Source of the DNA: an uncultured Clostridia bacterium
GTDB lineage: Bacteria > Acidobacteriota > Blastocatellia > UBA7656 > JADIYM01
Direction of reading: 5' to 3'
NCBI GenBank assembly: GCA_964591515.1
Contig: CAZQBW010000038.1
Span: 1 to 30,895, forward strand
Length of the DNA stretch: 30,895 nucleotides
The notes beneath the pieces were generated by a model. That model was not told the DNA's origin, searched no databases, and saw nothing but the letters and a program-made list of their open reading frames with translations. The position numbers were made by a program, and so were the translations under genes. Shown piece by piece: positions 1 to 29,349 of this stretch. Position 1 is the first letter of the stretch. Each line of letters starts with the position of its first letter.

Positions 1-1703
<1,703 letters not shown>

Positions 1704-1789
1704 ATGTCCCGGTAAGCCTCCGTTTCAGAGAACCCGAGACCGTAACACAGCGGCGAAGGGCGGAACAAATTCGGGACAATCATCCTTTT

Positions 1790-1876
1790 GCGTCTTTGCG
1801 AGACCTTGGCGTCTTTGCGAGAAACTTGTCATCAAGCCGGGTTTCTCGCAAAGACGCCAAGGTCTCGCAAAGACGC
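1790..1876. repeat. 87-bp perfect palindrome in the glmU-glmS spacer. Two 36-nt arms (1790-1825 and 1841-1876) flank a 15-nt loop. Each arm holds two direct copies of the 14-mer GCGTCTTTGCGAGA.
   Basis: Read directly: the reverse complement of the left arm gcgtctttgcgagaccttggcgtctttgcgagaaac equals the right arm gtttctcgcaaagacgccaaggtctcgcaaagacgc exactly. Two small hairpins follow, agtctgagaagact (1879-1892, reaching into the glmU stop codon) and ggactcgctcttcagagtcc (1895-1914, inside the glmU 3' coding end). Confidence 0.85.
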
Positions 1877-1891
1877 AAAGTCTGAGAAGAC

Positions 1892-3265
1892 TCAGGACTC
1901 GCTCTTCAGAGTCCGGATCACCCGCGCCGGGACACCCACGGCCAGAGAATCCGGCGGAACATCCTTCGTTACCACGCTGCCCGCCCCGGTCTTCGCTCCG
2001 TCGCCGACGGTGACTGGTGCCACGAGCATCGTGTCGCTGCCGATGTAGACCCCTGCCCCGATCGTAGTCCGGTGCTTGTTCTTGCCGTCGTAATTGCACG
2101 TCACCGTTCCCGCCCCGATGTTCGTCCGCGCACCAATGTCGGCGTCGCCCAGATACGTCAGGTGGTTGGCCTTCGCACCCGCACCGAGGACCGAGTTCTT
2201 GACCTCGACGAAGTTGCCGATGTGCACGTCTTCGCCGAGCTCAGTTCCCGGCCGGATCCGCGCGAACGGCCCGATCATCGCTCCGGCCGCGATCGTCGCG
2301 CTCTCGATCACGCTCATCGCGCGGACCACGACGTTGTCCGCGACGCACGCATCCACGAGCAACGCGTTCGGGCCGATCTCGCAGCATTCGCCGACGACTG
2401 TCGCCCCCGACAGAGTCGTCCCGGGATGCAGCACGGTATCGCTGCCAACTTCAACCGTATCGTCGACATACGTGTTCAGCGGATCGACGATGGTGACTCC
2501 GCCGTCCATCAGGCGGCCAAGCGTCCGCAGCTTCAGTCGCGATTCGGTCTCGGCAAGCTCCCGGCGCGTGTTGATCCCGGCGAGCTCCGCCGCGTCGGTG
2601 TGACAGACGACTCCGACGCGCTCGCCGTTGGCGACGAGCATTCCGAGAACGTCAGTCAAGTAGTACTCGCCCTGATCGTTGCCGGTAGAAAGCTGACCGA
2701 GCGCCGGAATCAGGCTGGCGCGGTCGAAGGCGTAGATGCCCGCGTTGATCTCGTCTATTGCCCGTTCGGCGTCCGACGCATCGCGGTGTTCGACGATGCG
2801 CTCGAATGTGCCGGCGCCACTTCGCACGATCCTGCCATAGCCAGTCGGGTCCACGAGCCGGACCGACAGGAGCGTGGCGGCGTTGCCCTCTAGCGCGTGC
2901 GCATCCACCAGCGACCTGAGCGTCTCCACTTCGAGCAGCGGGACGTCTCCGGACAGCACGACGACGGTGTCGCCTTTCAATTGATCGACGGCCTGCTGGA
3001 CAGCGTGTCCCGTGCCCAGCTGCTCGGCCTGCAGTGCAAACACGACCTCGGCCGTTCCCGAACCGCCGGCTGCGTGCCGGACCGCCGATTCCACGGAGGA
3101 CGCCTGATGACCGACGATCGTCACGAGCCGATCCGCTCCGAGCCCTGTCGCGGCTCTTACGACGTGCGCGACGAGGGGACGGCCTCCGACAACGTGCAGC
3201 ACCTTCGCCTTTCGGCTCTTCATCCGCGTTCCGAGTCCTGCCGCCATGATCACGACGTCGAGCAT
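1892..3265 (-). CDS. glmU: Bifunctional UDP-N-acetylglucosamine pyrophosphorylase / glucosamine-1-phosphate N-acetyltransferase
   Basis: 457 aa. The N-terminus MLDVVIMAAGLGTRMKS...LSGDVPLL is a nucleotidyltransferase fold. The C-terminal half is rich in hexapeptide (left-handed beta-helix) repeats (IGxxxxIG...NYDGKNKHRTTIGAGVYIGSDTMLVAPVTVGDGA). Confidence 0.92.
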   Translation of the reverse strand: MLDVVIMAAGLGTRMKSRKAKVLHVVGGRPLVAHVVRAATGLGADRLVTIVGHQASSVESAVRHAAGGSGTAEVVFALQAEQLGTGHAVQQAVDQLKGDTVVVLSGDVPLLEVETLRSLVDAHALEGNAATLLSVRLVDPTGYGRIVRSGAGTFERIVEHRDASDAERAIDEINAGIYAFDRASLIPALGQLSTGNDQGEYYLTDVLGMLVANGERVGVVCHTDAAELAGINTRRELAETESRLKLRTLGRLMDGGVTIVDPLNTYVDDTVEVGSDTVLHPGTTLSGATVVGECCEIGPNALLVDACVADNVVVRAMSVIESATIAAGAMIGPFARIRPGTELGEDVHIGNFVEVKNSVLGAGAKANHLTYLGDADIGARTNIGAGTVTCNYDGKNKHRTTIGAGVYIGSDTMLVAPVTVGDGAKTGAGSVVTKDVPPDSLAVGVPARVIRTLKSES

Positions 3266-3334: not shown

Positions 3335-4426
3335 TCAGGAGACGGCGAGTCTACGGCGCGCAGCCAGCGCAATGTCAAGCACCACCCGCGCGAGCTTTCC
3401 GGCGTCGTGACGGACGACCTCCCGGTCGTCGATGACGTCGAGCCCGACGAGAGTGGTTCGACGGGTCCCGTGACCGGGCAATCGCACTTCCCTCTCGTCG
3501 AGGATCGGAATATTCGCGTTGTCGCCGAATCCGAGTCGAACCTGGATTGCTCCCTCGGCAAGGTACTTCCGGCGGAGTCCCTCCGAGATCGGCAACGTGT
3601 TCACGATCACACGGTCCAATCGAAGGCCGGGAGCGTGCTCGGCGAGCGCAACGAGGTGATCCTCGACGGTGAAACCGTCCGTCTCGCCGGGTTGCGTCAT
3701 TCCGTTGCAGACGAAGAGTGCCGGTGCCGGCGACGCGGTGATGGCTTCCGGAATCCCGGGAACGAGCAGATTTGGAATGACACTCGAAAAGAGCGAGCCC
3801 GGTCCGAGCACGATCAGGTCCGCAGTGGCGATGGCCTCGAGTGTCGCGGCGAGTGGCCGGCAGTCCCTGCGAGACAGCCGAATCCGGCGTACTCGCGAGC
3901 CTGACGTCGCAATCTCGCGTTCGCCGTGTACCGTGCGACCGTCAGAGAGCTCGGCGATCAGGTCGACGACCTGCATCGTCGACGGCACGATCTGTCCCTT
4001 GATGGCCAGCACTTCGCTCGACACGCGGATGGCTTCGAGGAAGTCCCCCGTGACGTCGGTAAGCGCGGTGAGGAAGAGATTTCCGAAGGAGTGTCCACCG
4101 AGCGTACCGTCGCCGGCGAAACGATATCGAAAGAGCCGTGTGAGGAGCTGCTCGTCTTCGGCGAGAGCAACCATGCAATTGCGGATGTCGCCTGGCGGCA
4201 GAATCTTGAACTCTTCGCGCAAACGGCCCGAGCTTCCGCCGTTGTCGGTGACTGTGACGACGGCGGTCAGTCCATGTCCCGGCGGGCCTATCTCGACATC
4301 GACGTGCTCCTTGAGCCCTGCGAGCAGCGTCGAGAGTCCCGTCCCCCCGCCAATTGCGACGATCCGGAGGGTGTCTCCGATCTGACCGTCCTCCGTCGAT
4401 CTGTCTCTGTGTACCACGCCGTCCAA
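3335..4426 (-). CDS. yvcK: YvcK/GlmR-family protein (CofD-like, UPF0052; UDP-GlcNAc-binding gluconeogenesis factor)
   Basis: IVAIGGGTGLSTLLAGLK...VTVTDNGGSSGRLREE...PPGDIRNCMVALAEDE...GHSFGNLFLTAL...DLIVLGPGSLFSSVIPNLLVPGI...CNGMTQPGETDGFTVEDHL matches B. subtilis YvcK across the full length. The true start may lie slightly inside the ORF, because the N-terminal ~17 aa are not conserved. Confidence 0.8.
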   Translation of the reverse strand: MDGVVHRDRSTEDGQIGDTLRIVAIGGGTGLSTLLAGLKEHVDVEIGPPGHGLTAVVTVTDNGGSSGRLREEFKILPPGDIRNCMVALAEDEQLLTRLFRYRFAGDGTLGGHSFGNLFLTALTDVTGDFLEAIRVSSEVLAIKGQIVPSTMQVVDLIAELSDGRTVHGEREIATSGSRVRRIRLSRRDCRPLAATLEAIATADLIVLGPGSLFSSVIPNLLVPGIPEAITASPAPALFVCNGMTQPGETDGFTVEDHLVALAEHAPGLRLDRVIVNTLPISEGLRRKYLAEGAIQVRLGFGDNANIPILDEREVRLPGHGTRRTTLVGLDVIDDREVVRHDAGKLARVVLDIALAARRRLAVS

Positions 4427-4456: not shown

Positions 4457-5707
4457 CTAGACCGCGCCGAGCCCGACGAGTTCCTGGAACCGGGTGTCGC
4501 CGCGCAACGGGAGAAAGTCGGGATCCGTGCGGGCCTTCGAGCGGTGGATTTCGCGCACCGCGACCGCCTGTTCGAGCGTCTTCAGGCCTTCATCCGTATT
4601 GCCAAGCCGCACCTGTGCCGCCGCGAGCGAATACAGGACGTAGGGCATGTCGGGTTGGGACTTGAGCGCGCGCCGGAAGAGGTCGATGGCGGCCTCGAAG
4701 TGCCCGTTGTTCATTTCAATGACGCCCTGATCGTAGAGAGAATCCGGCGTCTGTGAGACCTTTTGCGGAGTCTGGAGCTTCGACTTGCAGATGGCAATAT
4801 AGCGGCTTACGAGCGCGACGATGTCGCTCTGTGTCGGGTACTTGGCGATGATCTTCTCGAATGCGTCCTCCGCGGCAACGAAGTTGGCCTTCTGGAAGAA
4901 CTTCATCGCCGCGTCGAGCGACTTGAGAACGTCGGCCATCTTCGGGGCCTTCGGCTGTTGAACCGGCGGCCGGTAGACAACCGGATCTGCCTTGACGGGC
5001 GGCAGCGGCTTCACGGGCAGGCGCGGAGTTGGCGACTTGGCGGGCTTCGATGGCGCCGCAACAGGGTGCTTCTCAGCCACGACGGCCTTTGCCGAGACCT
5101 TCGGGGCTGCTTTCGGAGCCGCTTTCTGAACTGACCTGGGAGCCGGTTTGGGCGACTTCCCCGAAGCCGTCTTCGCTGGTGACGGCAACGTAGCGGCCGC
5201 GGCTTTTGGAGTCGCGACCGCCGATTTCCCCGACTTCGGAAGAGCTTTGGAGGCCGCCGTCCTGGTCGCCTTCGCAGTCGAACCGGAAGCCTTTGCAGCG
5301 ATTGGCTTTGCAGGCGTCGACCGCTGCGGAGCCGCCTTGGCCTTCCCGCCCGCAACGGCCGCTCCCTTCAATTTCGCCGACGCGGCTGTCTTTGCCACCT
5401 TGGCCGGCGCCGGCACATTCTTCGACGCAACCGGCTTCTTTTCAGCGTCTTGTCGCGACTTGACCGACTTCACATCCGACTTTGCGGACGGTTTGGACGG
5501 TTGCTTCGAAGCTGTAGTCTTCTTTGCCGCTACGACCTTGGACGGCGAGGCCTTCGACACTACCGCTTTCACAGCGGGTTTCACCCTGGACGCGACGCTT
5601 CCCGGCTGCGACGACAGTCGCGACTTGGAAGTGTCCTTGGCAGTTGGCTTTACGGGCGTCTTTCCGGCGGGCTGGCGCTTGCTGGCGTTCGCTGGGGAGT
5701 TCCTCAT
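4457..5707 (-). CDS. Protein with a histone-H1-like Lys/Ala/Pro/Ser-rich disordered N-terminal region (~250 aa) and C-terminal TPR repeats
   Basis: 416-aa ORF. N-terminal AKKA/KPAA/PKAAPK-type low-complexity repeats (…KPAVKAVVSKASPSKVVAAKKTTASKQPSKPSAK…KAAPKAAPKVSAKAVVAEKHPVAAPSKPAKSP…). The last ~165 aa are TPR-like helical repeats (AEDAFEKIIAKYP…EAAIDLFRRALKSQP…LGNTDEGLKTLEQAV). It sits 30 nt upstream of yvcK on the same strand. Confidence 0.7.
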   Translation of the reverse strand: MRNSPANASKRQPAGKTPVKPTAKDTSKSRLSSQPGSVASRVKPAVKAVVSKASPSKVVAAKKTTASKQPSKPSAKSDVKSVKSRQDAEKKPVASKNVPAPAKVAKTAASAKLKGAAVAGGKAKAAPQRSTPAKPIAAKASGSTAKATRTAASKALPKSGKSAVATPKAAAATLPSPAKTASGKSPKPAPRSVQKAAPKAAPKVSAKAVVAEKHPVAAPSKPAKSPTPRLPVKPLPPVKADPVVYRPPVQQPKAPKMADVLKSLDAAMKFFQKANFVAAEDAFEKIIAKYPTQSDIVALVSRYIAICKSKLQTPQKVSQTPDSLYDQGVIEMNNGHFEAAIDLFRRALKSQPDMPYVLYSLAAAQVRLGNTDEGLKTLEQAVAVREIHRSKARTDPDFLPLRGDTRFQELVGLGAV

Positions 5708-14516: not shown

Positions 14517-14609
14517 CCCGGAACCCCGAGCGGTAGCGAGGGGCCGGCGATAGAATTCACCGCGCGTGAATTCCACCGCCGGCCCCTCGCTGCCGCTCGG
14601 GGTTCTGGT
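14517..14609. repeat. Nested GC-rich palindrome. A 32-bp imperfect stem (2 mismatches) encloses a 28-nt loop, and the loop itself contains the perfect 22-bp palindrome gaattcaccgcgcgtgaattc.
   Basis: The left arm is cggaaccccgagcggtagcgaggggccggcg and the right arm is cgccggcccctcgctgccgctcggggttctgg. It lies between the anti-sigma gene and kdsB. A TTGACA hexamer follows at 14614. Confidence 0.75.
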
Positions 14610-17131: not shown

Positions 17132-17932
17132 ATGAAGGATCTCGTCGGAACGGTCGAGTTCAACCGCCAGCTCGCGCCCCGGTATTTCCACATCCGGCTT
17201 CGACTTCCGGAGCCGGTCGACGTACTGTCCGGACAGTTCGCGATGCTGCGCCCGTCGGGACTCGTCGAGCCGATCCTGCGGCGAGCGCTGGCGATCCATC
17301 GTGCCGACGACTGCGCGGTCGAGTTCATCTACCTCGTGCTTGGCCGTGGTCTCGAGGCTCTCACGCGCGTGCGCGAGGGCGAGAACGTCGACGTACTGCT
17401 TCCGCTCGGCAACACATACCCGACGGACTCCGTCTTCAGTGAAGGCAGGCGCGCGCTCATCGTGGCGGGAGGAGTCGGTTCGCCGGCTCTCTTCATGCTG
17501 GCGGGCGATCTCGTGGCGAAGGGGGCGGACGTCCGCGTCTACTTCGGCGGACGCACACAATACGACCTGCCTGCTCTCAATGAATTCGAGGCGCTCGGCT
17601 GTCCGGTGACCGTGACGACCGACGATGGATCGGCCGGTGAGCGCGGCTTCGTGACGGCGCCGCTCGAGCGCGACCTCGCTGCGAACGCCGGCCCGAATGG
17701 CAGCGTCGTCTACACCTGCGGCCCGTGGCCGATGATGGCTCGCGTGGGCGCGATCGCCGCCGAACAGGGCGCGCAGTGCTTCGTGTCGCTCGAGGCGAGC
17801 ATGGCGTGCGGGTTCGGCATCTGCGTCGCGTGCGTCGTCGAGGTCTGCGAGGGCTCGTTCGCGCCTCCGTTCAAGTACCAGAAGGTCTGCACCGAAGGGC
17901 CCGTGTTTCCGGCGGAGGCGATCGTATGGTGA
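17132..17932 (+). CDS. pyrK: Dihydroorotate dehydrogenase electron-transfer subunit (PyrK; FAD/NAD-binding plus a 2Fe-2S cluster)
   Basis: It starts immediately after the pyrG stop (TAGATG). There is a C-terminal Cys cluster ([11 protein letters not shown]). It precedes pyrD and overlaps it. Confidence 0.8.
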
Positions 17933-18888
17933 ACACGACCGAGAGTTCCCGCGATCCGCGCCTCGCCGTCGAGGTTGCGGGCATCCGGTTCCACAATCCG
18001 ATTCTCACCGCCTCGGGCTGCTGCGGGTACGGCCTCGAGTTCGAACCGCTCTTCGATCTCTCGCGGATCGGCGGCATCTGCACGAAGGGACTCTCGTCGA
18101 GGCCGCTTCAGGGCAATCCCCCGCCCCGAATCCAGGAGACGCCGGCCGGCATGCTCAACGCGATCGGCCTGCAGAACATCGGCGCCCGCGCGTTCATCGA
18201 GCAGAAGCTGCCGCGATTGCGTGAATACGACGTCCGCGTGCTGACTAACGTTTTCGGCTACACCGTCGAGAACTACGTCGAGGCGATTCACATACTCAAC
18301 GACGGCGAAGGTATCGACGGCTACGAGTTGAACATTTCGTGCCCTAACGTGAAGGAAGGCGGGCTGATCATCGGCAACGACCCTCGCGCTGCCGCCGAGG
18401 TGACCGAGGCCGTGAAGCGCGTGGCGAAGCGGCCGGTAATCGTGAAGCTCTCGCCGAACATCAGCGACGTTGCCGGTATGGCTCGCGCGCTCGAGTCGGC
18501 TGGCGCGGACGCGCTCTCGCTCATCAACACGCTCGTCGGCGTGTCCATCGACATTCACACCCGGCGACCGAGAATCGCCAACGTCACTGGCGGACTCTCA
18601 GGACCCGCGATCAAGCCGGTGGCAGTTCGAATGGTCTGGCAGGCGGCAAGTGCCGTGAAGATCCCGCTCATCGGAATCGGCGGCATTGCGACGGCGGAGG
18701 ATGCCGTGGAGTTTCTCATCGCCGGCGCGACGGCGGTTCAGATCGGGACGGCGAGTTTCTACGATCCGTTGGCGACCGTCAAAGCCGTCGAAGGGCTGTC
18801 GAACTATCTCGACAAGGCGGGAATCGCGTCGGTGCGCGAGCTCACCGGATCCATCGATCTCGAAGCTCCGTTATCGCGCGGTCACTGA
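17926..18888 (+). CDS. pyrD: Dihydroorotate dehydrogenase catalytic subunit (class 1B)
   Basis: MVNTTES…[18 protein letters not shown]…GGICTKG…NAIGLQNIG…ELNISCPN…[10 protein letters not shown]…IGIGGI are PyrD motifs. The ATG at 17926 overlaps the pyrK stop. Confidence 0.88.
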
Positions 18889-19012
18889 GACAGCGCTGAG
18901 CTTCGCACACAGAGGCACGGAGACACGAAGGTCATCCGTCGTCTCCGACGGAATCCGGTTCTCTGTGCCTCAGAGGCTCTGTGTCTCTGTGTGCGAAGCT
19001 CTGTCAGGCCAC
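18889..19012. terminator. Complex inverted-repeat / hairpin cluster in the pyrD / regulator convergent spacer
   Basis: gagcttcgcacacagag at 18897-18913 is mirrored by ctctgtgtgcgaagctc at 18991-19007. Internal hairpins are cggagacacg…cgtcgtctccg and gcctcagaggc. The CTCTGTG motif occurs three times. Confidence 0.5.
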
Positions 19013-20881
19013 CCCGACGCGTCTTACGAGATCCAGGTACCGCGGATCCTTCCGCAACGGAGCGAGATTCGGATCCACGCCGATGAAGATCACGAAGAAG
19101 TCGCGCGCATCGTAGGCTTTTCGGAGCTGCTCGATCGCGCGATCGACGTCGCCCGTCTGCGCGTAGAGTCCGGCCAGCGAACACGGCGACTCACGCCCGC
19201 TGGCAATTCGCGCTCGGCAGAGCCCCAGCCAGCCTTTAGTGGCGTAGGCCCCCCGGAGCGCTGCAATGGCGTCCGTCCCCTCTCCTGCAATCTCCATCGA
19301 CCGGATGAGCGCAGCGACTGCATCATCGTGACGCCCGGCCCCGGCGTGCGCGGCGAAGAGATACTGATACGCAAACAGGAAGCTCGGGTCGAGCTCCAGC
19401 GCCTGCCGGCAATGCTCGATCGCTTCGTCATACTCGCCCGCGAAGTAGCAGATCTGCGCCATGTCGGCGCGCATGTTGGGCGAAACCGGATCGCATTCGA
19501 TCGCTCTGGCCAGGGAGGCCTTCGCTTCGGGGTAGCGTCCGCGGACAGCGAGCGAGATGGCGTACCACTGATGCGCCGTCGCGTAGTTGGGCGAAAGCTC
19601 GATCGCAAGACGCAACTCGTGGTCCGCCGTCGGCAGATCCCAGTGGTGGAACATCAAGTAGAAGCCCATCGACGCGTGGGCTTCGCCGATCGAGTCGTCG
19701 AGCTCGAGTGCCTTGCGGAGGGCTGGCTCGGCGAGTGGCGCCGCCTGGATCGAGTAGGCGTCGGCCAAACCGACGTGCGCGAGCGCAAAATTCGGGTCCT
19801 CCTCGATGGCGTCCTTGAAGCACTCGATACTCGCGCGCACGGCCTCGGTCGTCCGCTTGCTCCAGAGGTAGCGCCCCTTCAGATAGGACTCGTAGGCCCT
19901 GGCGCTCTGAGTGGGACGCGCCGCCGGACGCAATTCCTCCCCATCGAGCACGGGAGCCAGGCCTTTTGCAACGCGCGCCGCAATGGCGTCCTGCAGGACG
20001 AAGATGTCGGACGCGTCATTGTCGAACGTCTCGGTCCAGAGCGACGCGCCGTCTCGCGCACCGACGAGCTGCGCGGTCACCCGGATGCGACCCTCCGACG
20101 TCTGGATCCGACCGTCCAAGATGGCATCGACGCCGAGCGCGCGCCCGACGGCGATCGGATCATGGTCCCCTTCGGCATAGCGCTGGACCGCGCTCGTCGA
20201 TCGCACGCTGACGCGCTGGAGTCGGCCAAGTCGGCTGATGACGGCATCTGCCATTGCAATCTCGAGATAGGCTTTGTCGGCACGCGAGTCGTCGAGGACA
20301 CGAAACGGCAGCACCGCAATCGACCGGACGGCAAGCGGCGCTGCGATCGTTGCGGACCGATAACCGTTCCATGCGAAGACGAATGCTGCCACGGCGACGA
20401 CGAGCGCCACACCCGACAGGTACACCGCGGGCGATCCAAGTCGCGTGGCGGCCGGTGCGGAAACTGTGGCCACCTCTTCCCGAACCACAATCGAGGCGCG
20501 AGTCCGCCGGTGGACGGTCACCTCATTGTCGTCATCATCCAGTTCGTGGACTTCACCAACGAATCGATAGCCCCATCTCGGTACCGTCTCGATGTAGCGA
20601 TGCCCGTCGCCGTTCTCGCCGAGCGCCTTGCGCAGGATGGAGATGTACTGATTGAGGTTGTTCTCTTCGACGAAGGTGTCGGGCCAGACGGCCTCGAGCA
20701 ACTCGTCTTTCCGAACCGCGTGTCCCCGGTTCTCGACCAGCGCGCACAGTGTGTCGAACGCCTTAGGGGGAATGGTGACCGGCTCGCCATCGCGGAGCAG
20801 GTGGCGGTTGTCGGCGTCCAGGCGAAATGGCCCGAACTCGTAGAGATGCCTGGGATTCTCCGCCTTCATAAATCCCTTCAC
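19004..20881 (-). CDS. Membrane-anchored transcriptional regulator of the ToxR/CadC type. It has an N-terminal OmpR/PhoB-type winged-helix (Trans_reg_C) domain, one TM helix, and a periplasmic TolB_N-like plus TPR sensor region.
   Basis: …LRDGEPVTIPPKAFDTLCALVENRGHAVRKDELLEAVWPDTFVEENNLNQYISILRKALGE…IETVPRWGYRF matches the Trans_reg_C consensus. The TM segment is AVYLSGVALVVAVAAFVFAW. …SIAVLPFRVL… is TolB_N-like. The C-terminal ~300 aa carry multiple TPR-like repeats. Confidence 0.75.
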   Translation of the reverse strand: MKGFMKAENPRHLYEFGPFRLDADNRHLLRDGEPVTIPPKAFDTLCALVENRGHAVRKDELLEAVWPDTFVEENNLNQYISILRKALGENGDGHRYIETVPRWGYRFVGEVHELDDDDNEVTVHRRTRASIVVREEVATVSAPAATRLGSPAVYLSGVALVVAVAAFVFAWNGYRSATIAAPLAVRSIAVLPFRVLDDSRADKAYLEIAMADAVISRLGRLQRVSVRSTSAVQRYAEGDHDPIAVGRALGVDAILDGRIQTSEGRIRVTAQLVGARDGASLWTETFDNDASDIFVLQDAIAARVAKGLAPVLDGEELRPAARPTQSARAYESYLKGRYLWSKRTTEAVRASIECFKDAIEEDPNFALAHVGLADAYSIQAAPLAEPALRKALELDDSIGEAHASMGFYLMFHHWDLPTADHELRLAIELSPNYATAHQWYAISLAVRGRYPEAKASLARAIECDPVSPNMRADMAQICYFAGEYDEAIEHCRQALELDPSFLFAYQYLFAAHAGAGRHDDAVAALIRSMEIAGEGTDAIAALRGAYATKGWLGLCRARIASGRESPCSLAGLYAQTGDVDRAIEQLRKAYDARDFFVIFIGVDPNLAPLRKDPRYLDLVRRVGVA

Positions 20882-24378: not shown

Positions 24379-27300
24379 ATGCGACTTCACCGCATCGCCA
24401 TTGCGCAACGCTCGGCCACGGTCCGGTCCGGTGTCCTGATGCTCCTGGCGTCGCTGGCGTGTTCGTCGGCCGCTCCCGCATCGACGACCCTCGAAGAGCC
24501 GATCTCCGCCGCCGTGCCCGCGGTTGCTGCTCCGGCAGCAGCTCGCGTCTCGCCCTCGTTTGGCAGTCTACCGGTCAGCTTCGAGCCGAACGTCGGGCAG
24601 GCGCCGGCAAATGAGAAGTACATCGTTGCAGGTGCTGATGCAGCTGCGGTGACCGCAACGGGCGTCGTGCTCCGAGGCGGTTCCAAGCCCGTGACGCTCG
24701 AGTTCATTGGGGCGTCGACGTCGGCCAGCATGACTGGGACGAATGAGCTTGCCGGAAAGGCCAACTACCTCGTCGGCGACGATCCGTCGGCTTGGAAGAC
24801 GAACGTGCCGACGTATGCGTCGGTCCGCGTCGAGCAGCTCTACCCGGGCGTCGACCTGGCTTGGTACGGAAAGGGTCGGAGCCTCGAGTTCGACCTCGTG
24901 CTGGAGGCTGGCGCCGATCCGGGCAATGTCTCGTTCAAGCTCGACGGCGTTCCCGCGCCCATTCCCGAGATCGGTCCGGACGGCGCGCTCGTCGCTGGCG
25001 ACGTACGGTTCGAGCGGCCGGTCGCCTATCAGGAGGTCGACGAGGTGCGCAAAGCGGTTCCGTGCGGATATGTCACCAACGGCGATGGACGCGTCGGCTT
25101 CCGGCTCGGCGAATACGACCACTTGCTCCCGCTCGTCATCGATCCGGAGATCGGCTACACCTACACGTTCGCGGATTCGAGCAAGGACATCTCGATATTC
25201 GGCATTGCCGTCGATTCGACCGGAGCGGCGTACGTCGCCGGACGGACGCGAACCGAGGGCTCCGGCGGAGTGCTCACTGTGGCCGCCTTCGTCGCCAAGC
25301 TGAATCCGGAGGGCACGGCGCTCGTCTACTCGACGACGATTTCCGGGTCGGCGGGCAACGAGGAGGCGCGCGACATCGCGGTCGACGCCACGGGCAACGC
25401 CTTCATTACGGGCTTCGTGTTCTCGAGCAATTTCCCGACGACCGCCGGAGCGTTTCAGACGACGAAGGGATCGCCGAACGGAACCCAGGATGCGTTCGTC
25501 GCGAAGCTCGCGCCGGGGGGCGACTCGTTCGTCTACTCGTCGTTCCTCGGAGGCAGCGGAGGTACGTCCGGAAGCAGGATCGCGATCGACGCCAGCGGCA
25601 ATGCCTTCGTGGCCGGCTTTACACAGTCGAGCAACTTCCCGACGACGTCACCAGCACAGGGGACGTTCGGCGGGGTCCGCGACGCATTCCTGACGAAGGT
25701 CAACGCCGCGGGCAGCGCGAAGACCTATTCGACCTATCTCGGCGGAAGTCAGAGTGACACCGGCAACGACGTCGCGGTCGATGCGTCGGGCAGTGCCTAC
25801 GTCGTCGGCGTGACGACGTCTACGAACTTCCCTGTCTCGGCGGGCACGATCCAGGGAACAAGCGGCGGCGGTTCGGACGGTTTCTGGGCGAAGTACGATC
25901 CGGCCGGACAGCGGGTGGCGTCGACGTATCTTGGCGGCACGGGATTCGACAGCGCGAACGGCGTCGCGGTAGATGCGGCTGGAAACAGCTATCTCACCGG
26001 CGAGACGGCATCGCCCGAATTTCCGCTCGTGGCGCCGGTACAGTCGACGATCGCCGGGGATCGCGACGCCTTCATCACCTCGCTGAACGGGTCCGGGACG
26101 GCGACGACTTTCTCTACGTTCTACGGTGGCACCCGGTACGACTACGGAACCGCAATTGCCCTGGGTGGCACGGGCTCAATCGACGTCGTCGGCACGACCG
26201 AATCGAACGATTTCCCTGCAGTTGACCCAGTCCAATCCACGTTCGGCGGTGGAGTCTCGGATGCGTTTGTCATCCGATTGGGCTTCGGTACGACCGCCGG
26301 GCGACTCGAGCTTCCATTGCCGACGGTGACATCTTCCTCGTATCAAGGCGGCCCCGGTCGCGAGACGGGCGCAGCCGTCGGGCCGAACGGTGCGAATGGG
26401 GTCGCCGTCGCAACGAGTCAGCAAAAGGACAGCCCTCAAGGCGGACACGACGAAGCCGGTGTCACGACATACACTTACGTCGGACCGCCCGCTCCCGACC
26501 TCGCCGTGACAGGTGCGCTTGCGGGAACCTACACCTCCAATGGTGAGCGGTACTACCTGATCTTCGTGCTCGCTACCAGCACAACGCGTTGCTCCGCGGA
26601 CCTGCTCGCACCGAATGCCACGTTCGGCGTCGTCCTTCCGGCGGGAGTCCGCTTCAAGGGCGTCTTTGCGTCAAACCGCGACGTCACGGTAACGGACCGG
26701 CCTGATGTGGACCACGCAGGTGCAGTGACGTTCACGTACTCGAAAGCGGTGCCCATTCTGAGGCCAAACCAGGAGTTCGCCGCGTTTCCATCGTCGGCAT
26801 ACGTCCTCGTGACGGTGGAGGACCCACAGGTCACTTCCCTCCCCGTGAACTTCTTCGCGTCGGTCAGCGGAAGTCTCGAGTGTTACTACGACAACAACGA
26901 GCAGACCAAGGTCCTGGACCTTCTAAGCAAGGGACTTCGACTCGGCTTCGGTTCGAAAACACTCCAGGTGTTTGGCTATTCTCCCGAAGGCTCCGGTAAG
27001 CCCGTTACACGAATGATCGGTGACGCCGTTCCCGACCTGAATCCACCTCACCGGTCGGAGTTGGTACCTGGGCTCGTCGGATTCAATGTCTACATGTCAG
27101 TGAGCCCCGGCGTTCAACCGGTCGAAGCGAATCGGATTGGCTTCATTCCGGCGGACCAGGTGTTCTTCGACGCCTCGGATACGCCCAGCGGGGCGTTCTT
27201 CATTCTTACGGCGGTCTCCGCGGACGGAGAGTCCGAAGCATCGAACGAGGTCGGAGGAGCGTTGCCTTCGGTATCGTCGCTGAAAGTCAGCGGGACGAAA

Positions 27301-28571: not shown

Positions 28572-29320
28572 CGTCGCTCGACCCGATCGGCAAAGGTCCG
28601 CCTCTGGTGTATCTGCCGGGCCTCGACGGAAGCGGCGAGCTTCTGTTCGCCCAGGAAGAAGAGCTCGGAACCCGCTACCGGATCCATCGCGTCCGATACC
28701 GCAGCGAAGGCGAATTCACCTACGACGACCTCGTGCGCGATGTCGTGGAAGTACTCGACGAGGCGGACGTCGAGCGTGCGACGATCGTCGCCGAGTCGTT
28801 CGGCGGGACGATCGGACTGCATCTTGCGATCGCCTATCCCGAGCGCGTCGAACGCCTCCTGGTACTCAACAGTTTCGCGAGATTCTCGAACCGCCGGTTT
28901 CTGAGATGGGGCGGCATTCTCATTCGCCACGCGCCGCCAAAGATCGTCCACGCCGTCCGATACGCCATCGACACACCAACGCTTGCGCTGCTCGAGCACA
29001 TCCCGAAGGATCGTCGCAAGGTCTTCCTCGACGTCGCCCGCCGCCAGCCGCTCTGCGGCTATGCAAGACGAATCGAGCTCATCGAACACCTGGATCTCGC
29101 GAAGTCACTCGACGGCATCAGCGTTCCGACGCTGGTCGTCACTGGTGAGATCGACCGTGTAGTGCCGTCAGCAGCGTCACGCGAGCTCGCCGAACGCATT
29201 CCGGGCGCCACCCTTCGCACACTGCCCGGTGTCGGGCACGCGGCGCTGATGACGCCCGGCGTTTCGCTCCTCGAAATCCTGCAGAACTGGCCACAGATGA
29301 ACACAGATGAACACAGATAA
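28568..29320 (+). CDS. Alpha/beta-fold hydrolase
   Basis: Its GTG start overlaps the pyrF stop (GTGA). The nucleophile elbow is AESFGG (GxSxG-like), with …LVLNSFARF… and a C-terminal His in GHAALM. Confidence 0.7.
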   Translation: MTSLDPIGKGPPLVYLPGLDGSGELLFAQEEELGTRYRIHRVRYRSEGEFTYDDLVRDVVEVLDEADVERATIVAESFGGTIGLHLAIAYPERVERLLVLNSFARFSNRRFLRWGGILIRHAPPKIVHAVRYAIDTPTLALLEHIPKDRRKVFLDVARRQPLCGYARRIELIEHLDLAKSLDGISVPTLVVTGEIDRVVPSAASRELAERIPGATLRTLPGVGHAALMTPGVSLLEILQNWPQMNTDEHR

Positions 29321-29341
29321 TCTGTGAAGATCTGTGTTCAT
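29291..29341. terminator. Repeat-built bidirectional terminator: tandem ACAGATGAAC ×2 followed by the perfect 13-bp inverted repeat gatgaacacagat / atctgtgttcatc
   Basis: cacagatgaacacagatgaacacagataatctgtgaagatctgtgttcatc. The stem is 29305-29317 paired with 29329-29341, with an 11-nt loop. The region is AT-rich relative to its surroundings. The hydrolase stop codon TAA lies inside the loop. Confidence 0.55.
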
Positions 29342-29349
29342 CAGTGGAC

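Follow-up and report, generated by a model that had tools for sequence, protein, structure and literature searches.

The glmU and glmS genes of the DNA analysed here, a stretch of 30,895 nucleotides (contig CAZQBW010000038.1; hereafter the window), lie next to each other on the minus strand, and the spacer between them holds a long perfect palindrome (Table 1). Using an inverted-repeat search, we find that the arms of this palindrome (1787-1825 and 1841-1879) are 39 nt each, are 100% complementary and have 15 nt between them. An earlier examination of the letters without database searches, which we call the sequence-only reading, had described a perfect palindrome of 36+36 nt at 1790-1876; this is the same feature, three pairs per arm short of the full 39 nt. 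That reading had also put the element 16 nt after the glmU stop and 87 nt before the glmS start. The placement holds, and the distances shift with the full arms to 12 nt past the glmU stop and 83 nt ahead of the glmS start, which is at 1703 and not at 1704 (minus strand ATG TGT GGA ATC, encoding MCGI). Each arm carries two copies of the 14-mer GCGTCTTTGCGAGA, 19 nt apart. We found exactly four exact copies, as had been noticed before, two direct and two inverted (1790 and 1809 on the plus strand; 1844 and 1863 on the minus strand). One further match with at most two mismatches occurs in the 30.9-kb window, at 26660, where 0.8 are expected by chance, and none of 100 shuffles of the window gave at least five matches. 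As RNA, the 107-nt piece containing the palindrome folds into a very stable hairpin of -78.5 kcal/mol (shuffles -28.8 +/- 3.7; z = -13.6; 0 of 200 equally good), which answers a check proposed in the sequence-only reading. Both of the small hairpins reported beside the palindrome, at 1879-1892 and 1895-1914, are present, and the second of these (GGACTC...GAGTCC) is inside the glmU coding sequence.

The palindrome is also present in other assemblies of the same glmU (L001, L002 and L147; loci are cited by L number throughout). Given that these are independent assemblies with an identical GlmU, the palindrome is not an artefact of the window contig. All three of these contigs, which are the ones that reach the element among four same-species contigs recovered, stop within the palindrome. 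This is expected because the palindrome exceeds the assembler k-mer, and such palindromes fragment short-read assemblies.

We used a scan of public genomes to find relatives of the palindrome. The core pattern TCTTTGCGAGA-N(0-30)-TCTCGCAAAGA, scanned over one genome per GTDB species, returned 64 matching stretches, against roughly 1 by our estimate of chance (6e11 positions x 31 gap lengths / 4^22); as a seed, this pattern skews the hairpin sample to one core and one polarity. By the taxon labels that submitters gave, the carriers are Bacteroidota (Flavobacterium isolates and metagenome-assembled genomes (MAGs), with 12 stretches in MAG SZAS-41), Acidobacteriota-like MAGs (labelled Blastocatellia, Pyrinomonadaceae, Solibacteraceae or Acidobacteriota), Desulfobacterota MAGs and the MAG CAZXLQ01, which is labelled Clostridia and has 10 stretches. 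Among the cultured carriers, Flavobacterium sp. ACN2 and D4 have copies in L039 and L055. The flanks of the copies are AT-rich in Bacteroidota and GC-rich in the Acidobacteriota-like genomes, and this difference by lineage indicates that the copies are truly in different genomes and are not contamination. In one CAZXLQ01 copy (L037 5255-5351), a 39-nt arm is identical to that of the window and the loop is unrelated. The core hairpin is often found many times per genome and beside unrelated neighbours, in agreement with the REP-like repeat that the sequence-only reading had offered as one possibility. For the glmS-specific role that it also considered, the same reading had named numerous copies elsewhere as an observation that would refute it, and 64 stretches were found. 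Based on these data, we are confident that the palindrome belongs to a dispersed family and has no specificity for glmS. Separately, the label "uncultured Clostridia bacterium" of CAZXLQ01 (L006, L015, L020, L026, L034, L037, L038, L049, L052) is doubtful, given a GC content of 63-67% and several hairpin families that this MAG shares with the window and with MAGs of Blastocatellia and Pyrinomonadaceae. A tentative placement of the window in Acidobacteriota comes from the hairpin families it has in common with MAGs labelled Blastocatellia and Pyrinomonadaceae and from its own GC content of 64%.

The copies have a common build. In every lineage the arms consist of tandem CTTTGCG-N octamers that run outward from the core, for example cTTTGCGc cTTTGCGt cTTTGCGa ga ... 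tc tCGCAAAGa cGCAAAGg cGCAAAG. In the window lineage these octamers are organised into a 19-nt unit, CTTTGCGAGWCCTTKGCGT, and the same architecture is found in CAZXLQ01 and in a Blastocatellia MAG. In a set of 67 hairpins, arms have a median length of 26 nt and loops one of 11 nt, with mismatches at 56 of 1683 arm positions. Complementarity in the 16 nt beyond the fixed core is 72.6% within a copy, versus 48.2 +/- 2.1% (maximum 55%) for arms re-paired across copies. For the subfamily with 19-nt units, we also aligned 12 copies, which come from the window lineage, CAZXLQ01 and Blastocatellia (alignment A3). In this alignment 96% of the cells are paired; of the 36 pairs, 7 have compensatory changes and 20 show no variation, and pairing falls to 30-53% when the partners are slid by 1-3 columns. 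For orthologous copies in Flavobacterium/Sphingobacterium (L010, L023 and L045), the arms are 100% identical and the loop has diverged (79% mean column identity over the whole alignment). Both arm sequence and arm pairing are maintained in this family. The number of units changes, most simply by slippage.

The loops of copies within one genome are mutually unrelated, except in a small subfamily shared by a Pseudomonadota-labelled MAG and by Ca. Tharpella. Between L051 and L056 the loop is roughly reverse-complemented, as recombination between the arms is expected to produce. The octamer arrays are found in both polarities (CTTTGCG...CGCAAAG and CGCAAAG...CTTTGCG), and the same genomes contain sister families that follow the same octamer plan with other words of the approximate form C-T-Y-Y-G-Y-G (CTCTGTG/CACAGAG and CTCCGTG/CACGGAG). 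Possible factors that keep the arm sequence alike over loci and phyla are a duplex-binding factor, concerted evolution or mobility. Two further observations concern variation and arrangement. At columns 20/83 of A3, the arm "alleles" GAGACC/GGTCTC and GAGTCC/GGACTC occur together in single genomes (CAZXLQ01 and Blastocatellia) and also across genomes, and the variation is therefore common to the genomes and not lineage-specific. In Desulfobacterota and Mariniphaga, CTTTGCG hairpins form tandem arrays with a period of 90-120 nt (L025 42-92 and flanks, L027 6895-7047, L047 4469-4606).

Members of the family are found at the ends of genes. For the 51 hairpins with both flanks assigned, the context is convergent in 20 cases, co-directional in 28 and divergent in 3, and the hairpins usually lie 2-30 nt past a stop codon. 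In L161, for which gene calls are available, all three long hairpins follow stop codons (rpsT >< linocin, lptE > holA and glmS >< hydrolase). The three further long palindromes of the window are likewise at gene ends and come from families common to other genomes (Table 1). For instance, the palindrome at 14518-14608 has 84% mean column identity to a Blastocatellia hairpin (L042 2203-2299), with mirrored changes in the arms, and octamers are not obvious in it. The palindrome at 18898-19001, with arms of tandem CACAGAG/CACGGAG octamers, has family members in Blastocatellia (L058 6000-6102), CAZXLQ01 (L037 1513-1591 and L038 3971-4117, the latter with 65-nt arms) and Pyrinomonadaceae (L013 121-209), and the lptE-holA hairpin of L161 (4237-4300) is similar to the palindrome at 29291-29347. 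Canonical terminators made of a hairpin and a T-run are not enriched in the window (8 versus 10.8 expected; 5 versus 9.9 expected).

Table 1. Features of the glmU-glmS region and further long palindromes of the window.
Feature	Coordinates	Strand	Description
glmS coding sequence, 5' part	1..1703	-	begins MCGIVGYVG; continues beyond the window; orthologue in L161 has GATase and SIS domains
glmS Shine-Dalgarno GGAGG	1717..1721	-	
Putative glmS promoter-like motif	1739..1768	-	-35 TTGTTC (1768-1763); 18-nt spacer; extended -10 TGtTACGGT (1747-1739)
Palindrome arm (3' arm of glmU-sense RNA)	1787..1825	-	two 19-nt units with GCGTCTTTGCGAGA in each; CTTTGCG-N octamers
Palindrome loop, 15 nt	1826..1840	-	sequence unique to the locus; small apical stem CUUG/CAAG in glmU-sense RNA
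Palindrome arm (5' arm of glmU-sense RNA)	1841..1879	-	100% complementary to 1787-1825; identical to the arm of L037 5255-5351
Small 5-bp inverted repeat, glmU stop to palindrome	1879..1892	-	AGTCT gaga AGACT; base 1879 common with the arm
glmU coding sequence, 457 aa	1892..3265	-	Pfam NTP_transferase and Hexapep; stop codon 1894-1892
Palindrome, 43-nt arms, 91% complementary, 5-nt loop	14518-14608		after RskA-like anti-sigma gene, before kdsB-like cytidylyltransferase
Palindrome, 34-nt arms, 82% complementary, 36-nt loop	18898-19001		between convergent pyrD (17725-18888, +) and TPR/Trans_reg_C regulator (19004-20881, -)
Palindrome, 28-nt arms of CACAGATGAA decamers	29291-29347		overlaps alpha/beta hydrolase stop; 2 nt from convergent myo-inositol-1-phosphate synthase stop

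The history of the spacer can be followed among graded glmU relatives, a comparison that the sequence-only reading had recommended and for which relatives were reached through protein search and contig look-ups (the nearest in JGI metagenomes is only 54% identical). The hairpin is kept at 83-100% glmU identity save in L150, and is absent at 80% and 69%. At 100% identity, the window and L001 have two units in the glmU-proximal arm; the window has two in both arms, and L001 stops inside that arm. Also at 100%, L002 (1395-1462) and L147 (5375-5419), which come from different assemblers, have a single unit in the glmU-proximal arm and differ in the loop by G>A. In L002 two units remain in the other arm, and this one-unit variant amounts to a slippage-type deletion of 19 nt. 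At 93% (L148/L149) the hairpin is imperfect, with two to three copies of CCTTTGCG opposite four of CGCCAAGG. Hairpins of 2+2 units are found at 87% (L151, with 6 mismatches) and at 83% (L157-L160). In the 80% relatives (L152-L156) a spacer of 100 nt without hairpin contains a small CCGGGGATCCCCGG, and in the 69% relative (L161) the spacer is 92 nt, again without hairpin. Further out, approximately 50 relatives at about 50% identity include some 30 with glmS directly downstream; the window-type hairpin is in none of these, and about 20 of the spacers are 1-75 nt. This pattern of presence and absence across graded relatives indicates an insertion that was retained at this site within one clade. 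Among the orthologous glmU-glmS copies, the arms are conserved and the loops have drifted, and the apical mini-stem changes from CTTG/CAAG to CTCG/CGAG, a compensatory change.

Two loci have a different repeat in the corresponding place. At 88% glmU identity, L150, a short contig that stops before glmS, has another tandem repeat in place of the hairpin: right after glmU (3112-3221) lie approximately three tandem units of about 22 nt, each with the palindrome TCCGCGACCGCGGA. At about 52% identity, L093 has a palindrome of its own in a 151-nt glmU-glmS spacer (glmU stop ends at 4359), with TGCGAAT/ATTCGCA tandem units, and this follows the same construction principle as the palindrome of the window with a different word.

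The glmS side of the spacer has its own conserved sequence. All six readable loci, which span 69-100% glmU identity and include loci with and without hairpin, have in common TTGTYC, a gap of 17-18 nt, TGnTACGGT, about 20 nt, GGAGG and the glmS ATG. By its conservation and geometry, this TTGTYC/TGnTACGGT motif is the inferred glmS promoter. The motif is weak relative to the E. coli consensus and is not called by an E. coli-consensus scan, and it may reflect a promoter type of the lineage's own. It would put the start of glmS transcription some 7 nt past TACGGT, near 1732 on the minus strand. The hairpin lies upstream of this motif and, if the motif is real, is probably not part of the glmS mRNA. 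Its position after the glmU stop and upstream of the motif would make it part of the 3' end of the glmU transcript and not a glmS leader.

We compared the palindrome with known classes of elements. It is not a canonical Rho-independent terminator, which is ruled out by the lack of a U-tract straight after the hairpin. The sequence-only reading had reached the same view, and we find that neither strand has a T/U-run past the hairpin and that 1500-2200 contains no terminator-like site; the glmU-sense sequence past the hairpin is AAGGAUGAUUG. The glmS ribozyme, GlmY and GlmZ are ruled out by the lack of any Rfam covariance-model match in the whole window at gathering score, which for the ribozyme had also been anticipated from the letters alone. 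With the threshold relaxed to E <= 10, the only matches in 1650-1950 are spurious ones to eukaryotic families of hairpin shape, for the most part miRNA precursors. The E. coli glmUS operon with GlmY/GlmZ and the Firmicute glmS ribozyme thus resemble the element in location near glmS only; unlike them, the palindrome is not specific to glmS and lies upstream of the conserved glmS promoter-like motif. On 18 carrier loci, Rfam matches were limited to RNase P and Flavo-1 (RF01705), both away from the hairpin positions. The Flavo-1 copies that we read are a different motif, and Flavo-1 is rejected as the identity of the hairpin. The Flavo-1 copies in the Flavobacterium loci (L010 1579-1656, 2090-2157 and 5211-5287; L021 4924-5014; L023 67-144 and 2762-2838) lie away from the CTTTGCG hairpins, and the inner stems of the two L010 copies that were read, CCTTTTGCG...CGCAAAAGA (5211-5287) and CCTTTTGTG...CACAAAAGA (the other), are faintly octamer-like.

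Among repetitive elements, MITEs such as Correia/NEMIS, RUP and ERIC are like the family in being small non-coding elements with inverted terminal sequences that are often co-transcribed with neighbouring genes and whose hairpins affect mRNA fate. However, MITEs are 70-300 bp long, with terminal inverted repeats of 15-30 bp, a common internal sequence and target-site duplications. In the octamer hairpins, nearly the whole element is inverted repeat and the interior varies by copy. Immediately beside the palindromes, direct repeats do not exceed the length seen in a shuffled-flank control. A MITE, one form of insertion that the sequence-only reading had suggested, is therefore ruled out, there being neither target-site duplications nor an interior common to the copies.

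REP and BIME elements are closer. Like the octamer hairpins, they are short non-coding multi-copy palindromes found downstream of coding regions, between convergent or co-directional genes, are probably transcribed, lack target-site duplications, and occur head-to-head and tail-to-tail and sometimes in clusters (PMC3733652). In the public genomes scanned, the octamer hairpins are multi-copy (up to 12 stretches per MAG), extragenic, palindromic and downstream of genes, and in this broad sense they are REPs. They differ from REPs in arms of 25-45 nt (to 65 nt in related families), in their tandem octamers and in having no unpaired tag. The GTAG- and CGTC-tagged REPs have a stem of 5-13 bp (8-9 bp in the CGTC families), a small loop and an unpaired terminal tag (Di Nocera et al. 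2013, PMC3733652). We considered a CGTC-tagged REP because GCGTCTTTGCGAGA contains CGTC, and ruled it out given the 39-nt arms and the base-paired CGTC; the flanks of the copies have no common tag. Little similarity between taxa has been reported for REP consensus sequences (PMC12306157), whereas the core of the octamer hairpins is common to several phyla. No RAYT or other transposase was found in the window, nor between or beside neighbouring hairpins in the sampled loci, whole genomes not having been scanned. A REPtron-like arrangement was also rejected, because the open reading frames (ORFs) between hairpins, when translated, read as ordinary genes (an ABC-type binding protein, a sulfhydrylase, an aldehyde dehydrogenase and a PIN-domain protein).

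TRIT, a palindromic hairpin with 147 copies in M. tuberculosis, is tied to gene termini and lacks a classical terminator profile (Gardner et al. 2011, PMC3152330). The octamer hairpins are TRIT-like in that they are conserved in sequence and structure, are scattered in many copies and are tightly linked to gene termini. TRIT differs in being restricted to Mycobacterium, in its sequence and in typically starting within the coding region, at about -8 relative to the stop, whereas the octamer hairpins mostly begin 2-30 nt past the stop; neither tandem-octamer arms nor a varying number of units has been described for TRIT. Sequence and taxon exclude TRIT proper.

DNA uptake words offer another likeness. 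In the DUS of Neisseria and the USS of Pasteurellaceae, inverted pairs of a word form hairpins with variable loops after genes, and the words are also over-represented singly, including in genes. The family shares with them a short conserved word that is inverted-paired into hairpins downstream of genes with variable loops. Outside hairpins, CTTTGCG is not enriched in the window (6 versus 4.3 expected). Against same-composition permutations it does not stand out in any of five genome samples; it ranks highest in Flavobacterium, and even there 7 of 209 permutations reach at least its score. A DNA uptake or Chi-like word is ruled out, given that the single heptamer is not enriched outside hairpins. 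Searches of plasmids, phages and 2.9 million viral contigs returned no copy of the hairpin. Literature searches with CTTTGCGAGA, GCGTCTTTGCG, CGCAAAGGCGCAAAG and CTTTGCG/CGCAAAG returned only primers and unrelated operators, and the topical literature on REP classification, RepRanger and RNIE/TRIT contained no description of an octamer hairpin. The octamer-hairpin family, with its tandem octamers in both polarities, cross-phylum core, constrained arms and free loops, appears to be undescribed.

Taking the position and the family together, we think it probable overall that the palindrome belongs to a dispersed family of REP/TRIT-like hairpins and that, lying at the glmU 3' end, it has a role where the transcript ends. 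The functional half of this proposal, in which the hairpin acts as a barrier, stabiliser or insulator, draws on analogy and is offered tentatively: enterobacterial REP and mycobacterial TRIT hairpins are thought to act as transcript-end elements (PMC3733652, PMC3152330). The element would be transcribed with glmU and would then fold into a 39-bp RNA hairpin. This hairpin may define or protect the 3' end of the glmU mRNA, either by blocking 3'-exonucleases or, as a long perfect duplex, by serving as a substrate of RNase III. It may also limit read-through into glmS, insulating both genes.

Several points weigh against this proposal. The hairpin has no U-tract after it, and mycobacterial RNA polymerase is reported to show no in vitro termination at hairpins without U-tracts. 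Bacteroidota copies are flanked by a T-run on the 5' side and by an A-run on the 3' side, which is the reverse of a canonical bidirectional terminator. Gene context at most loci comes from a longest-ORF heuristic and not from gene annotation. Mismatches on the sense strand are G.U in 13 cases versus A.C in 7, without significant preference for G.U, and selection at the RNA level is therefore not demonstrated over selection at the DNA level. The arm that is one unit short in two independent assemblies indicates that perfect symmetry is dispensable, and the disappearance of the hairpin in the 80% relative indicates that it is not essential at this locus.

A selfish or neutral REP-like repeat, spread through recombination or by an enzyme such as a Y1/HUH transposase, tolerated after genes only because it does no harm there, and with no function for glmU or glmS, is in our view an unlikely explanation. 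Many of the properties described above would fit it: copies are numerous per genome and patchy over phyla, close relatives differ in the presence of the element, and strains are polymorphic in unit number. Copy-paste is further suggested by the subfamily of JAYEMC01 (the Pseudomonadota-labelled MAG; L018/L036) and Ca. Tharpella (L014/L066), whose members have the same loop, reverse-complemented in L014, and in L018, L036 and L066 also common flanks; the tandem arrays of L025, L027 and L047 fit as well. However, the copies have no target-site duplications, no transposase adjoins or separates them in the sampled loci or the window, and none was found in plasmids, phages or viral contigs. In addition, whole-element copy-paste can hardly explain unrelated loops within one genome. 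Finally, orthologous copies keep identical arms as their loops and flanks diverge, and arm changes are compensated, which argues for constraint and not decay.

Still less probable is a site that acts at the DNA level, in which an array of octamers in direct and inverted order would be bound by a nucleoid-associated protein, by gyrase (as at E. coli BIMEs) or by a heptad/octad repressor, or would form a supercoil-absorbing cruciform. Conservation of the unit sequence agrees with this, as does the lack of a G.U bias, and the two polarities suit recognition of a duplex unit better than recognition of one RNA arm. Copies are also enriched between convergent genes, where positive supercoils accumulate. 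However, the arm changes are mirrored, and mirroring is required by intrastrand pairing and not by independent double-stranded half-sites. In addition, the period of 8 bp is out of step with the helical repeat of DNA, no enrichment of the heptamer is seen beyond the hairpins, and there is no candidate protein.

The dedicated control of glmS that was one option in the sequence-only reading, whether through an operator for a multimeric regulator or through a hairpin processed (for example by RNase III) in a glmUS co-transcript, as with RNase E and GlmZ-GlmY in E. coli, is highly improbable and is largely refuted by copy number: the element does sit in the glmU-glmS spacer, is retained there down to 83% glmU identity and, if co-transcribed, would by known RNase III preferences be a good substrate as a perfect 39-bp RNA duplex, but many genomes have the same arms beside dozens of unrelated genes, other palindromes at gene 3' ends in the window come from families that other genomes share, Rfam gives no match to the glmS ribozyme, GlmY or GlmZ, most distant relatives have short spacers and none has the window hairpin, and the 80% and 69% relatives without the element keep the same promoter-like motif and Shine-Dalgarno sequence upstream of glmS.

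At this locus, the idea of the palindrome as a new glmS control device is tempting but wrong, and glmS seems to have a conserved promoter-like motif to itself. Beyond this locus, long, sequence-conserved octamer hairpins lie at gene ends in Acidobacteriota-like genomes and in some Bacteroidota and Desulfobacterota, where classical terminators are not evident. It is possible, though we regard it as speculative, that they constitute an undescribed family which marks gene 3' ends in genomes with few canonical terminators, with a core common to Acidobacteriota, Bacteroidota and Desulfobacterota, and which implies either a trans-acting factor or self-propagating palindrome building. If so, a conserved trans-acting factor would read the repeated duplex unit in RNA or DNA, which would amount to sequence-specific definition of the transcript end. 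Alternatively, the palindromes would build themselves, for instance by hairpin-templated copying combined with octamer slippage; neither mechanism has been described. For these environmentally abundant, poorly studied phyla, a conserved, recognisable gene-end element could improve the annotation of operons and 3'-UTRs in metagenome-assembled genomes.

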